64,000 nucleotides of DNA from Desulfobacterales bacterium (GCA_021737275.1 JAIPEE010000006.1:13664-77663), one strand, 5' to 3'; shown: positions 20,601 through 26,280, numbered from the stretch's first letter. Numbers and translations: made by a program. The notes: a model not told the origin generated them from the letters alone.

Positions 20601-20878
20601 CGGTCAGTTTGTTGGTGGAACAGGCCAGATATCAAATGAAAAATATATCCACAGGGGGGTTCTGTATCCCGTTTAATAAAGAGTTTGAGAGATTAAAAAC
20701 AGGAAAAAGGTATACATGCTCAATCTCCCTGCCTGAACACACCGTTGACACTTTTGTCCGCATACTGGACATTTCAGAAGATGCCTATCATTGTGAGCTG
20801 GTTGATCTCAGTAAAAAAGACCGGGATGAAATCCATTTATACATATTGAATCGACAAAAAGAGGACCTGATGTTATGA
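17636..20878 (+). CDS. Npt1/Npt2-like MFS transporter + HEAT repeats + cNMP-binding + PilZ fusion
   Basis: ~12 TM N-terminus, HEAT-like repeats (DIRAAVA, MREGAARAIG), GFFGEIGLFDNSPRMADA cNMP cassette, RNSVR...NISTGG PilZ motifs. Confidence 0.8.
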   Translation: MSEKATRDKFKFIMAVCLHLICVSCIVLTRTYVDLLFLSNYPASWLPYFFFGTTAVIMLSAFCVTPLVSKGSNRASFVILVGMALSIVLSRVVLNFKITGLPFVISLWLTAASVLIGVISWNTVGDAFDVRKFKNLVKWINGAGCVGGLLMGLCIPFIISFASSDMLLYVLGSLVALSSFCVLALKPIPVLHKKIKEQVSLFKFPLFKCLFASVLILMVVDTFADYTLKSQVGAVFSKDEIGKFMGPFYGLASVLSLVVQFGGTGPLLKYFGVAFLLVVLPSFSILASIGIIVSPGLWLAAIFRMGENVFKYSLDNIGCEIVANPLPGKIRRKGKITLKGVAAPLGTCIGALVLWGIADRFGLRGVALVTIAACVIWLLTIFKINKAYQATLKDAIKLKRFGTQGSQITEADILAAGKLALSAIREKDPETIRFGLKVLENLSTKRLPEDALMLIDSENKDIRAAVAMTAGRVKDKYAALSLVKRLDMETDNEVLWRILEALSIIEPNPAILKSTELLKSSVPNIRAGAILVLLAAGDLDALIEAGTALREMVYSPDPDMREGAARAIGTFKAGKLEKELKTLLGDTSEKVCIAAIRSINLRKTISLTEDLVLKLGSGKVSHYASRTLTGFGLPAIESLEKAVLQERHSRSRAAIRTLALIEDPEAEKVLSTAAGSNFTTIKTFLAEESALRARRQSVSHEFKTRAHDFALDEFKTIRILLSVKNHHSLSEYAKSEIHARQQIHKKNYLCWFSVCTASSDVPDIAKILLSETTSPAELSRQATALELLDTLAPDKELKQTISIFENKHLSSAQNALEKLEKLEDPWLKKIILTKDVDFNGGQMDITQKVILLRKTTLFRNLPSEILLIIAEEVMIREMVMDEKIFSQGDSPDGLYIVATGTVIIRKGDVVISKLGEGGFFGEIGLFDNSPRMADAIAETNGSLLVIDNETFNSITQDLPEILREVAKTVIGYLRRQRNSVRVDPSINEPVSLLVEQARYQMKNISTGGFCIPFNKEFERLKTGKRYTCSISLPEHTVDTFVRILDISEDAYHCELVDLSKKDRDEIHLYILNRQKEDLML

Positions 20879-21442
20879 TTTTCTCTTCCGTACAACTTTG
20901 ATAATGATGACAATAATACTCACAAACACATAATAGCCGAAGAAAAGTATCCCCAAAGATAAGATAGTAAAACGATCCATTACATGGATTTGGCGCCACT
21001 CGTTGGCAAGATTACGGATCTCTTCCGGCGCTTTGGTAAAATCTGTTTTGAGGACCTGGCCTCCTGAAAAATCCAACATGTAACTTTTATCATATTCGTG
21101 GCTACCCCATGCAACCAATTCAAGTTCCTGGTCGCTATCGGCCTGAACGGCTTTGACAAATCCGCCGCCAAACATGTCTTTATCAATGATAAATTCATCT
21201 TTTGAGAGGATTTGTCCGCCATTTTTGAATAGTGTAATCTCGTAAGCAGACTGTTCGTCAAAGGAGGTTTGATTCACAAGGATAGTGATTTGCTCATCAT
21301 CACTTCCCCATACCACTTCATTCGGGTTACTCAATTTTATTGCAACATTTTTTTTGTCGAAAATATTATTGCCAATTAAATAAACCATTACCAGAATCGG
21401 CCATATGAAAATAAAAATTTTGAATGCGCGTTTGATGGGCAT
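20873..21442 (-). CDS. Hypothetical 2-TM membrane protein
   Basis: AAGGAG RBS; TM helices at both ends; central QADSDQELELV motif. Confidence 0.75.
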   Translation of the reverse strand: MPIKRAFKIFIFIWPILVMVYLIGNNIFDKKNVAIKLSNPNEVVWGSDDEQITILVNQTSFDEQSAYEITLFKNGGQILSKDEFIIDKDMFGGGFVKAVQADSDQELELVAWGSHEYDKSYMLDFSGGQVLKTDFTKAPEEIRNLANEWRQIHVMDRFTILSLGILFFGYYVFVSIIVIIIKVVRKRKS

Positions 21443-21457
21443 GGTTCTCCTTATTAT

Positions 21458-21700
21458 TTAAATTTTCGTACCACAGCCAGTGCAGAAACAATTGTTTGCA
21501 TCCAGAGCCACGCCACAGTTTGTGCAGAACCTCGGACGGGATGTTGCTGCTTTTGGCGTGGTAATCCGGTCACCAAGGGCGCCGTTACAGGCAAGACAAA
21601 GCGTCTGTTTGCCTATGTTTGTACGCCCACATATAGAGCAGTATTGCTTTAGATTGGTTTCTTTTGTCATTGTCGTTGTATCCATTTTTCCGGTCCTCAT
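21458..21700 (-). CDS. Small double zinc-ribbon protein
   Basis: Four CxxC pairs (CSIC, CLAC, CTNC, CTGC); ATG at 21700 overlaps the upstream TGA. Confidence 0.75.
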   Translation of the reverse strand: MRTGKMDTTTMTKETNLKQYCSICGRTNIGKQTLCLACNGALGDRITTPKAATSRPRFCTNCGVALDANNCFCTGCGTKI

Positions 21701-24700: not shown

Positions 24701-25437
24701 GCTTTATACTCAGTTTGTCCATATCGCACACCTGAGCCGTTTACAGTTGGCGGTTCACCGTGGAATGTCCCCAGACTACTGGCATTTCCGGAGGAGAATG
24801 TAGTCTCTGCTGAAATACCTGTCCCCCATAAAAACATAGCAAAAATTATTGTACAAACAGGTATTATGACATTAATAAATTGACCTGTACCCACATTTAT
24901 TTTTTTTATTGTGTTTGCTTTTTTCACAAGAAATAATGATAAAATAACCGCCATTGTCGTGGAAAATCCGTTCAGTAAAAATCCGAATTCTGTTATTTTA
25001 CGTAGTCCCAGCAGCGTTGAGCCCTGGATAAAGAGGAGAGAAGCCGCCCAGATCAGAATATAAAAATAGGTGCGCTTGGCGTAGGGCTTGCCATTTTTAA
25101 TAGAGATCTGATGCCCGCGTGCCATCAGAAAACCGGGCGCAATACCAAGAATAATTCCGATCAATGGCATCATTGGCCTGTAAACGCCTATGAACCATAA
25201 CATAAAAAGAAAGCAGCAGAGTGATATCGTTCCGGGAAGAATAGCGGTAATTTTACCCAGCGGCATTTCATTTTTAGAGCTCTTGATGACCATCCAGCTG
25301 GAATAAAGCATCATCAGGATAATACCGAGACTTCTGTTAAATTGCATGACCAGCATGGACAGCATTAGAATTGCGCCGGTTATCATCAGTTTTTTCGACA
25401 TTTTGCGGGCAACATTCAAGGCGATTTTAAAAGTCAT
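21697..25437 (-). CDS. Large multi-domain membrane protein with a C-terminal putative papain/transglutaminase-like domain
   Basis: 1246-aa ORF: multi-TM N-terminus, beta-rich repeated region, internal TM, acidic linker, GQCGE..NH..IDYW. Confidence 0.8.
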   Translation of the reverse strand: MTFKIALNVARKMSKKLMITGAILMLSMLVMQFNRSLGIILMMLYSSWMVIKSSKNEMPLGKITAILPGTISLCCFLFMLWFIGVYRPMMPLIGIILGIAPGFLMARGHQISIKNGKPYAKRTYFYILIWAASLLFIQGSTLLGLRKITEFGFLLNGFSTTMAVILSLFLVKKANTIKKINVGTGQFINVIIPVCTIIFAMFLWGTGISAETTFSSGNASSLGTFHGEPPTVNGSGVRYGQTEYKAILNPRVANLLESRKKRWFNSKISTGKKNLLVNWSFSGGRLIVDWDKRIATLEPIYFSCITAAQYDYDPGKIKYFKSSVELSLKKQSDGGNSLNMLGVDTSGNGGYSNMLPVMHGFGYPVIIGDGYMSSRYTSDREINSNGQYLKQPVYHGIGQTDFHITNNFPKSAGDKSNRKVSGNNTLLMQLQQGNYFRENFAIEQGVMETAFGCLIVLDNALKAINAEELRPADYRDKEFSFVPVKTIGREPATPHLISELKPQNSSWTKRDVTGTKVYKGRFLRAAPSPNDMNSAAKICAALRNAVCEGAELKVDWDKRKATLSPFLIRWDILTYNGAWKNTTSEAFSPVKSESGKITFNASAFQYIADGELNYSYQNKRVPLASSHDSSLTTFNPVAFKGKPVSVQWQAIPWDNDSILVRVYARPFTNQLRFVESQYYLPAYYDILFEQHKAVGSNKIEPAPDVEDTKNEISRSEPSETKSSQDRLQTDQNDEDLLSAIEQVLNTIEQSVQNIGFSEGAVAAGLTIAIIQLLGGLGMTAAYISAIDVAAAIDASVSEAQQELYSQPDVQDRNFLIDENGERWESNDEGLFGVEYDGKTEWMTREKAEQSIQKELESRHEREEKHDGQDPSSAQGWTEMLDGTEAQAWLIKNGYLYENGQPTLLFQDWQKNPDRGSLHGIAGYEGANGDMTDSVILISRGEPAQQEPEIQNKEQQSEEDRTDTQKVDAAENQVQDTQQSDEKVHSTKEPTKDTQQEVQEEIDDDRPPDVDRHNDELLPDEPEPYKPPGPTTPEQVATLKDKIQETVDDKKMEGYYVRNREFDVLPVVDQALWAGNKAINNIGNWVGSPVDGAMGWTGGQCGEYGEWGIKWSEKACKDTFGEGTIMTQITAESGTSNHNATRVITPNGDRFVIDYWQGMQDRQTVYTEEEWIQQQTKAGRPDIVRSWSGDKADILGGGEEGALNNYINKYGEKEGIEKFRSGAAKGEDMAKREALILSYQKSPWPTK

Positions 25438-25494
25438 AACACGAGGCTCCCAACTGATGGCGGATTTAGGCCGCTGATTCTTACTTAAGATATT

Positions 25495-26280
25495 CTAAAA
25501 AAACATAGCCACTATTACACCGATGAGGCTGCAAGCGGCCCAGCCGATAGCAAGGGATTTCTTTTCTTTTGTTGTTGCAGAAAAGTCATATTTTTTTTCG
25601 AGCAATATAGTGGCAAGGCCGGATACTATGAGCCCTCCAAAAATCATAGCAAAAATGGGTATGATGATTATGAGAGTGCCGTCATCAATGTATTCTTTAA
25701 AAAATATTGTCATAACCCCAAGAATGCTTCCCCACAAAAGCGCCCAGACCAGAGCTGGAAAAGTGCCCAAAATACCGGGATTGAGTTCTTTTTCGTTCAC
25801 AACTTTATAAATCAATATCCCGGCAAGAAAACCACTTAATAAAGATCCGATACCAAAGGATGTCAGCATGCCAGGTAAGGTGGTGTTCCAGGTTCGGGGA
25901 TACTGGCTGTAGAATTCAGGGTTTCCGGCTCGTATATTGTCATAAAATCCGGAAAACAAAACTCCTATAGGAAGCCAGCCTATAAGCCATATTATGGCCC
26001 ATTGGCAGCCTGAAGCAATTAAATTTTTTAATAAGAATGAATCGCTATCCGCGGCGGTTTTAGCAGGTATCGGACGAAAAGGTATCGCTTTTTCAGGCCG
26101 AGAAAATTTTTGTTTATTAATTTTTTTTGGTGTAGGGTTCACCCGGCGGGGCCGGGGTTTGACTTCTTCGCTTTCAGACTCAGGTGGAGCTATAGGAGCG
26201 CCACATTTTCCGCAGAATTTTATTCCCTCAGGATTTACAGGGGAGCCACACTTGCCGCAAAATTTTGGAGTTAGATTCAT
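25495..26280 (-). CDS. Zinc-ribbon domain membrane protein
   Basis: FCGKCGSPV..KFCGKCGAPI, Pro/basic linker, about 5 TM helices; GGAG RBS. Confidence 0.8.
   Translation of the reverse strand: MNLTPKFCGKCGSPVNPEGIKFCGKCGAPIAPPESESEEVKPRPRRVNPTPKKINKQKFSRPEKAIPFRPIPAKTAADSDSFLLKNLIASGCQWAIIWLIGWLPIGVLFSGFYDNIRAGNPEFYSQYPRTWNTTLPGMLTSFGIGSLLSGFLAGILIYKVVNEKELNPGILGTFPALVWALLWGSILGVMTIFFKEYIDDGTLIIIIPIFAMIFGGLIVSGLATILLEKKYDFSATTKEKKSLAIGWAACSLIGVIVAMFF

Follow-up and report, generated by a model that had tools for sequence, protein, structure and literature searches.

A stretch of 64,000 nucleotides from a Desulfobacterales bacterium (GCA_021737275.1 JAIPEE010000006.1:13664-77663), called the window in what follows, raises the question of what a cluster of four adjacent genes, A to D, might do beside a tRNA-Arg gene. 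The initial annotation had left two readings side by side: a polymorphic-toxin-like locus with a C-terminal effector and small coupled immunity candidates, or a membrane system in which an exported sensor controls an intracellular protease or deamidase. The analysis described here leans to the exported sensor with an intracellular enzyme, on the basis of the Lys/Arg counts in the loops of the large protein B, the scaffolds that carry its enzyme domain and a genome search in which neither a type VI secretion system (T6SS) sheath nor a PAAR gene was found, and gives less support to the toxin and immunity pair. By sequence comparison, B is a member of a very rare and strongly mosaic family, in which the ectodomain and the C-terminal domain are both swappable, and the cluster is read tentatively as an outside-in sensor–effector with a role in conflict.

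The four open reading frames (ORFs) are co-oriented on the minus strand and adjoin tRNA-Arg(CCG), which ARAGORN places at 26391-26466 on the same strand, its 3' end 110 bp from the start of A. The ORF listing of the window gives A at 25495-26280 (261 amino acids (aa)), B at 21697-25437 (1246 aa), C at 21458-21700 (80 aa from the ATG that overlaps the TGA of B; an alternative GTG four codons upstream would extend it to 21458-21712) and D at 20873-21442 (189 aa). A and B are separated by 57 bp, B and C share an ATGA overlap, read as ccaaccaaATGAgg, and C and D are 15 bp apart; the Shine-Dalgarno-like sequences GGGAG and GGAGA precede B and D, respectively. The orientation, gaps and distance to the tRNA gene are those given in the initial annotation, and the CxxC..CxxC ribbons that it had seen in two genes flanking B were found again in A and C. 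In a six-frame scan of the whole 4.26-Mb assembly, Zn_Ribbon_1 was matched three times at E<=0.01, and two of these matches are A and C, which flank B at a distance of 4.7 kb from each other; a scan with DZR led to the same three places. By our arithmetic, the probability that any pair among three random places falls within 5 kb is about 0.007, so the pairing of the two ribbons around B is unlikely to be due to chance. A scan for promoters and terminators did not rise above shuffled sequence (17 found, against 13.1 +/- 3.4), and the spacing is therefore the only argument that A–D form an operon.

Protein B has no match in Pfam (E<=0.1), NCBIfam or PADLOC. Its residues 1-205 (24823..25437, minus strand, as are all parts of B) are the family-defining N-terminal membrane bundle, for which seven transmembrane (TM) segments are predicted with the N-terminus inside. 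The bundle contains the conserved motifs ARGH, YAKRT, FTQGST and LLNGFST, and its invariant residues are S46, H109, T123, W130 and Q138, together with glycines; a conserved Glu is absent. Between TM7 and TM8 lies a variable domain of 554 residues (206-759; 23161..24822), predicted to be extracytoplasmic, that is, periplasmic. The motif VDWDKRxATLxP occurs in it in two copies; an internal duplication of this ectodomain was considered and rejected, as BLAST shows no self-similarity except for the 12-residue motif. The eighth TM helix (residues 760-783; 23089..23160; GAVAAGLTIAIIQLLGGLGM), identified by hydropathy, is found family-wide, with G764 and L772 invariant in 17 sequences. It is followed by a predicted cytoplasmic tail (residues 784-1029; 22351..23088) that contains an insert, LIDENG..WMTREKAE, common to P0006-8, a small 'MLDG..W..NGY' module present in 12 of the 18 relatives, and an acidic low-complexity linker; W888 of the tail is invariant. 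The chain ends in a putative Cys-His-Asp enzyme domain (CHD; residues 1030-1246; 21700..22350), with C1100, H1137 and D1153 as catalytic candidates.

The topology was derived from hydropathy, which shows seven segments within residues 17-205 and one at 760-783, and from charge. With the N-terminus set inside, the inner loops contain 16 Lys/Arg residues and the outer ones four, which by the positive-inside rule places the middle domain in the periplasm and everything past residue 783 in the cytoplasm; hydropathy and charge thus predict a cytoplasmic enzyme domain. Relatives with very short middle segments have four to five Cys residues there, fitting an extracytoplasmic placement, and the source genome is diderm, judging by its MlaE and MlaD genes.

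Relatives of B are few. A search of 5.8 billion protein clusters returned 14 with the whole protein and two more with its first 210 residues, and a further two members (P0037 and P0137) surfaced later, bringing the family to about 18 proteins. B was not found in any of 40 other genomes of the order, and the enzyme domain was found in none of 400 other genomes of the phylum. The parts of B, compared one by one by BLAST across the 18 relatives, have different distributions. The bundle is present in all 18 members, at 29-68% identity. The middle domain recurs only in P0005, P0006 and P0007 (37-42% identity), which carry other C-termini, and in the other 14 relatives it is replaced by unrelated, shorter or Cys-rich segments. 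The enzyme domain, as the C-terminal 217 residues, is present in eight of the 18, and C1100, H1137 and D1153 are invariant among eight relatives. P0002 illustrates the mosaic: its enzyme domain is 90% and its bundle 68% identical to that of B, and its middle domain is unrelated. The other members carry at least four further C-terminal regions, none of which matches Pfam, and a profile of the long C-terminus of P0006-8 retrieved nothing meaningful from the PDB sequences. The survey proposed in the initial annotation had a positive outcome across the relatives of B: a constant N-terminal part goes with C-terminal domains and downstream genes that differ.

The enzyme domain is far more widespread than the bundle. 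A HMMER scan of 1.84 billion representatives gave 124 clusters containing it at E<=1e-3 (about 124 at 50% identity), and in these it is almost always at the extreme C-terminus. In an alignment of 32 members, the His, the Asp and one Trp are present in all and the Cys in 29; the domain also has extra C-terminal helices and a conserved PW at its end. In an AlphaFold2 model (predicted local distance difference test (pLDDT) 83.9, predicted template modelling score (pTM) 0.82), C71, equivalent to C1100, opens helix 71-90, H108 lies within strand 106-114 and D124 comes right after strand 120-123. A Foldseek search found nothing below E 0.001, the best match being SseI at E 0.17. Exhaustive structural alignment of the model against 48,161 chains ranked SseI first (score 7.9), followed by Pasteurella multocida toxin C3 (PMT-C3; 7.4), RavJ (7.2), protein-glutaminase (7.0) and LapG (6.5), with Ceg10, TglA, vasohibin, PNGase, SpvD and arylamine N-acetyltransferases next. 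These scores are singly modest and the list is coherent, nearly all of its entries being transglutaminase/papain-like Cys-His-Asp enzymes. No Pfam family consistently matched any of the 32 members, none was shared at E<=1, and a profile search of the PDB sequences returned nothing. Taken with the coherent list of folds, the lack of such matches points to a new family within the known transglutaminase/papain-like fold, which on the modelled structure would be a putative protease, deamidase, transglutaminase or acyltransferase. The 'protease or deamidase' with a Cys-His-Asp triad that had been proposed as the end of B is a fair description, given the conserved triad and the predicted fold. The domain differs from the Tox-PLDMTX family, which includes the SseI and PMT-C3 deamidases, in having no sequence match to the family model, and from SseI/PMT-C3-type enzymes in being, as predicted, tethered to the membrane of its own cell instead of injected.

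Outside the B family, the enzyme domain has a scattered distribution across Verrucomicrobiota, Chloroflexota, Proteobacteria and Firmicutes. Seven loci were found in species-representative genomes, belonging to Akkermansiaceae, Anaerolinea, two proteobacterial metagenome-assembled genomes, Syntrophomonas, Eubacteriaceae and Desulfuromonas. One type of scaffold consists of a signal peptide, an ectodomain, one TM segment and a basic stretch, such as KRSQNLAKMKGK in locus L009, followed by the enzyme domain; another has a cytoplasmic ribbon or small Trp-rich domain and a multi-TM region with an 'ADDGG' loop ahead of it. A relationship between the latter multi-TM scaffold and the bundle of B was considered and rejected, the alignment reflecting the common enzyme domain only. 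According to a crude hydropathy census, 27 of the 68 classifiable matches have two hydrophobic segments ahead of the enzyme domain. The 'ADDGG'-type proteins sometimes carry hundreds of residues of GYD repeats before the enzyme domain: near-perfect G[YF]D-x-x-G[YFW][DN] repeats run for several hundred residues from the membrane part to the enzyme domain in L008:7526-10600 and in P0020, P0035 and P0055, making a tether of low complexity that is unusual. A separate subgroup (P0076, P0077, P0078, P0081, P0109 and P0119) has an N-terminal signal-like segment only, together with a Cys-rich GG(R)TYGG region, and three of the six have Phe or Ala in place of the catalytic Cys; judging by their sequences, these may be exported forms that are in part inactive.

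The enzyme domain is not the only one that is exchanged in this way. A second type of C-terminal domain, found in P0014, P0016, P0017 and P0137, recurs on the B-type bundle (P0137), on the scaffold with a ribbon and 'ADDGG' region (P0141) and on scaffolds with a signal peptide, an ectodomain and a TM segment (P0140, P0142 and P0145), where runs of Lys/Arg come right after the TM segment. At least two unrelated C-terminal domains are therefore exchanged among three unrelated membrane scaffolds, which makes them swappable cassettes on receptor-like scaffolds. By the charge rule, the second domain, like the enzyme domain, would be cytoplasmic. A likeness of this second type to the EF/CyaA/ExoY cyclases was considered and dropped: its only support was a precomputed PF03497 tag on the distant relative P0146, which in a direct scan matched no family at E<=0.01, and profiles against the PDB sequences retrieved no cyclase toxin.

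At all six of the other enzyme-domain loci with DNA downstream, the adjacent gene overlaps the stop codon of the enzyme protein, which ends in ..PW, the partner starting with MV. In each of the six, the partner contains a conserved domain, about 90 residues long, and after it a C-terminal module that is a zinc ribbon in three, GYF_2 with an FHA-like domain in two and without a recognised counterpart in one. The partner genes encode no signal peptide, and their modules are of a cytoplasmic kind. Two enzyme-domain loci also have upstream ribbon-TM or GYF-TM proteins with ectodomains, similar to A and D. The partner domain is absent from C and was not found anywhere in the source genome; a relationship to the B family or to D was rejected, there being no similarity. 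The proposal that C or D is an immunity protein finds no support here, since C is a bare double ribbon without the partner domain seen in the six other loci.

Gene A begins with a zinc ribbon (residues 6-30; 26191-26265, minus strand), predicted to be cytoplasmic. Its CxxC..CxxC pattern spans residues 8-26; Zn_ribbon_NUD matches at its cut-off, DZR also matches, and the Zn_Ribbon_1 score of 23.3 bits falls just below the 25-bit cut-off. The ribbon precedes the first TM segment, and is separated by a basic Pro/Lys-rich linker from about five such segments indicated by hydropathy. C contains two CxxC..CxxC pairs, which make a double zinc ribbon (DZR E 8e-5, below the cut-off), and is, as read from its sequence, a cytoplasmic protein translationally coupled to B through the ATGA overlap. 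D has hydrophobic segments at residues 6-24 and 163-181 and basic N- and C-termini, which suggests a two-TM protein with a periplasmic domain of about 135 aa between the membrane segments. The third genomic match to Zn_Ribbon_1 and DZR, on a different contig (C43:124732-124875; L023:8724-9035), is in a 103-aa ORF seemingly unrelated to the cluster, flanked by ORFs that we take, from their translations, to resemble a tRNA-methyltransferase and an amidohydrolase.

Two other B-family loci, L002 and L003, bear on the question of whether the four genes travel together. A is related over its full length to a gene in L003 (33% over 255 aa, E 5e-31), which lies 2.6 kb upstream of the B homologue, and residues 1-108 of A resemble a shorter ribbon-TM gene that immediately precedes the B homologue in L002 (35% over 108 aa). 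The membrane part of A is unmatched in the 400 other genomes of the phylum, ten of which gave matches at the level of the ribbon only. The B homologue is followed directly in both loci by a gene whose product (356 aa in L002 and 407 aa in L003) has a double zinc ribbon at its end, and these two proteins have only the ribbon in common (38% over 58 aa). D has no family match in Pfam, NCBIfam or PADLOC and no relatives in L002-L010 or in the 400 other genomes of the phylum, and, being an orphan in this sense, its only ties to the cluster are the 15-bp spacing and the GGAGA ribosome-binding site. From these neighbourhoods and the orphan status of D, the conserved core consists of a ribbon-TM gene, the B scaffold and a ribbon-ending gene, with D as a local addition. 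The notion of zinc-ribbon partners gains from the comparison, a ribbon gene following the B relative in both of the other loci, and that of four genes as a fixed set does not, D having no relative in either locus or in the 400 genomes. In the metagenomic locus L003:1-10749, the relative of A lies among six ORFs in which Zn_Ribbon_1 or DZR is joined to RDD, to a WD40-like propeller, to TM segments or to unknown domains, and the ORF next to it, at the end of that contig, resembles a serine recombinase, to judge from its translation.

In the outside-in sensor–effector reading, the conserved seven-helix bundle would anchor B in the membrane and the fast-swapping domain would be displayed in the periplasm, the chain returning through TM8 to a long acidic tether that would hold the Cys-His-Asp enzyme in the cytoplasm. 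When the periplasmic domain of B, perhaps with that of D, senses some event at the envelope, the cytoplasmic enzyme would be switched on and would go on to cut, deamidate or cross-link protein targets in the cytoplasm. The roles envisaged for the membrane-bound A and the soluble, coupled C are those of regulators, docking partners or substrates on the inner side of the membrane. The data show how the genes are laid out, where the domains of B begin and end, the mosaicism, the conserved triad, the class of fold, the rarity of the family and its link to zinc-ribbon genes; the topology, the direction in which the signal runs, the chemistry and targets of the enzyme and the conflict role are what we infer. 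A role in conflict is probable, for example in defence against phages or competitors. The reading is favoured because the effectors are predicted to be cytoplasmic, the scaffolds are receptor-like, both ends are exchanged, the partners are of an adaptor type, the distribution is patchy and there is no T6SS sheath or PAAR: neither the sheath (VipB/TssC) nor PAAR was found in the 96%-complete genome, other secretion systems not having been searched for, and Pfam and NCBIfam reveal no known trafficking domain in B. A broader proposal, doubtful at this stage, is that these proteins constitute an undescribed, phylum-spanning class of single-chain transmembrane immune receptors with exchangeable ectodomains and effector cassettes, whose coupled ribbon, GYF or FHA proteins restrain the effector. 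The ectodomain would then detect phage adsorption or a competitor, and the effector cassette would execute growth arrest or a counter-measure.

Several observations weigh against the sensor–effector reading. TM8 of B has no charged flanks of its own, and the topology is a prediction. About nine of the 68 classifiable enzyme-domain proteins have only an N-terminal signal-like segment, some with Cys-rich regions, and in these, judging by that segment, the enzyme domain is probably exported, so that it evidently can work outside the cytoplasm. PADLOC recognised none of five window proteins and none of 23 relatives and partners, except for one weak TPR match in a neighbouring gene. The cluster is flanked in the window by housekeeping genes and not by a defence island, no relatives were found in viral, plasmid and phage collections, and the B-family loci read beyond the window are L002 and L003 only. 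Finally, polymorphic toxins and their immunity genes bear the same signature (PMC3482391): the N-terminus is conserved, the C-terminus varies, and the downstream gene, tightly coupled, has an N-terminal part that varies too.

That the cluster encodes such a toxin, with the bundle as a conduit or trafficking module, a role proposed for the N-terminal domain of PrsW-fused toxins, the enzyme released to competitors and the downstream gene or genes protecting the producer, is nevertheless unlikely in our view. The swapping of C-terminal domains behind a constant N-terminus would suit it, and the conserved TM8 and 'MLDG' module are positioned like a pre-toxin domain; the ectodomain, however, swaps no less freely than the C-terminus, and B showed neither a PrsW domain nor any other domain of a known trafficking, processing or repeat type. 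Injected effectors and toxin domains (SseI, PMT-C3, RavJ, Ceg10 and SpvD) are among the closest folds, and some enzyme-domain proteins look Sec-exported, whereas the predicted topology keeps the enzyme domain of B in the cytoplasm of the producer, in a genome in which neither a T6SS sheath nor PAAR was found. Here, as at the six other enzyme-domain loci, the stop codon lies within the overlap with the downstream gene, and the N-terminal part of that gene's product differs between loci with different C-terminal domains, as expected of immunity; yet C is a double ribbon only, the partner domain was not found in the genome, and there is no downstream array of orphan toxin and immunity cassettes. 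Zinc ribbon, GYF and FHA additions are, moreover, unusual in immunity proteins. A precedent for an eight-TM N-terminal domain fused to varied toxins is described in section 9 of PMC3482391.

Ordinary signalling by regulated proteolysis or modification, in which, in the manner of BlaR1/BlaI or an anti-sigma cascade, a periplasmic ligand would lead the Cys enzyme to process C or the tail of A and so alter gene expression or envelope physiology, with no role in conflict, is quite unlikely, although it accounts for the receptor-like layout with a predicted cytoplasmic enzyme and for partners carrying modules of an adaptor type (FHA-like, GYF_2 and zinc ribbon). The cluster also lies among housekeeping and second-messenger genes, including the convergent gene at 17636-20878, and membrane peptidases fused to PilZ, cyclic-nucleotide-binding (cNMP-binding), FHA or zinc-ribbon domains are deemed likely signalling versions in section 9 of PMC3482391. 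Such a role sits poorly with the extreme rarity and patchiness of the system (none of 400 other genomes of the phylum) and with the wholesale swapping of output domains among unrelated scaffolds, which fits conflict systems better; no DNA-binding or sigma/anti-sigma domain was detected with Pfam or NCBIfam. It is highly improbable that there is no single system at all, and that four unrelated orphan genes, or partly mis-called ORFs, are adjacent by chance. D, without any relatives, and the uninformative promoter and terminator scan would agree with this; the tight spacing, the ATGA overlap and the ribosome-binding sites speak against it, as do the placement of two of the three genomic Zn_Ribbon_1 matches around B, the relatives of A and double-ribbon-ending genes that accompany B relatives in both other loci, and the recurrence of A, B and the enzyme domain, conserved at the protein level, among independent metagenomes.

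Among known systems, BlaR1/MecR1 combine an extracytoplasmic sensor, a TM bundle and a cytoplasmic protease that acts on a small soluble regulator encoded alongside, and the B cluster may work in a comparable manner. B differs in having neither an M56 metallopeptidase nor a penicillin-binding sensor, its Cys-His-Asp output is swappable and its neighbours showed no sign of a DNA-binding partner of the repressor kind. The polymorphic toxins of section 9 in Zhang et al. 2012 (PMC3482391), whose N-terminal domain is a membrane-spanning PrsW peptidase, resemble B in joining a conserved N-terminal domain of about eight TM segments to diverse swappable C-terminal domains. The bundle of B, in contrast, has no PrsW or other Pfam match and lacks the conserved acidic and His motifs of that peptidase. 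B also differs in the large, variable ectodomain and the additional TM segment ahead of its C-terminal part; the downstream gene encodes a zinc-ribbon protein instead of a typical immunity protein, and export of the C-terminus is unsupported. The effector-variable membrane anti-phage systems (PADLOC catalogue; Kaur et al. 2020, PMC7159879) are likewise rare, patchy and horizontally scattered, with interchangeable effectors and zinc-ribbon or TM accessories; the cluster differs from those described there in having no PADLOC match and in the absence of an NTPase, vWA or MoxR core. PMC7159879 and PMC12419801 describe further systems that bear ribbons or GYF domains. A full-text literature search, with most subscription journals and supplements outside its reach, gave no description of this architecture, which appears to be undescribed.

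The cluster would take its place among modular, effector-swapping conflict proteins, to which it brings three unclassified domain families. If the sensor–effector reading is true, the N-terminal bundle, the transglutaminase-like Cys-His-Asp domain and the coupled partner domain would be three families in no searched library, and membrane scaffolds that exchange both their outward- and inward-facing ends would be an uncatalogued design among defence and toxin systems. It would also become testable, with a compact cassette of four genes whose source is a lake bacterium that is not a pathogen, whether one polypeptide couples envelope sensing directly to an intracellular protein-modifying effector. 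Should the locus encode a toxin and immunity pair instead, it would bring a new family of toxin fold and a new route of membrane launch.

The adjacency to tRNA-Arg, to which the initial annotation had drawn attention, acquired no role. No direct repeat of the 3' end of the tRNA gene was found within 15000-26500 and no integrase among the ORFs of the window, and the G+C content (GC) of B (0.44, with 0.42 at third codon positions (GC3), against 0.416 for the window) gives no clear foreign signal; a tRNA-linked island was rejected on these grounds. Among sequencing runs, contigs of three runs from one study match the locus exactly, and one run of a second study contains two short pieces at 96-99% identity and at a small share. 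The matching contigs showed neither variation between strains nor a swap of modules.

The convergent neighbour at 17636-20878 (plus strand; 1080 aa) overlaps the end of D by 6 bp. Its protein has an N-terminal multi-TM region, HEAT repeats, a cNMP-binding domain and a C-terminal PilZ domain, and the cNMP-binding part has weak PADLOC matches to Pycsar-type effectors; a link to the cluster is not established. Elsewhere in the window, a stand-alone cNMP-binding protein is encoded at 2961-3434 (plus strand) and a 1018-aa protein with MerR helix-turn-helix, GAF, GAF and GGDEF domains at 60942-63995 (plus strand). Pfam gave no match at E<=1e-5 for four ORFs of 178-296 aa (9229-10116 and 36555-37277, both minus strand; 11164-11832, plus strand; 50715-51248, minus strand). 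The one at 11164-11832 sits between the MlaE and MlaD genes, where an ATPase gene is expected. Two tRNA-Ser genes (cga and gga), 84 bp apart, were located by ARAGORN at 56670-56939 on the plus strand.

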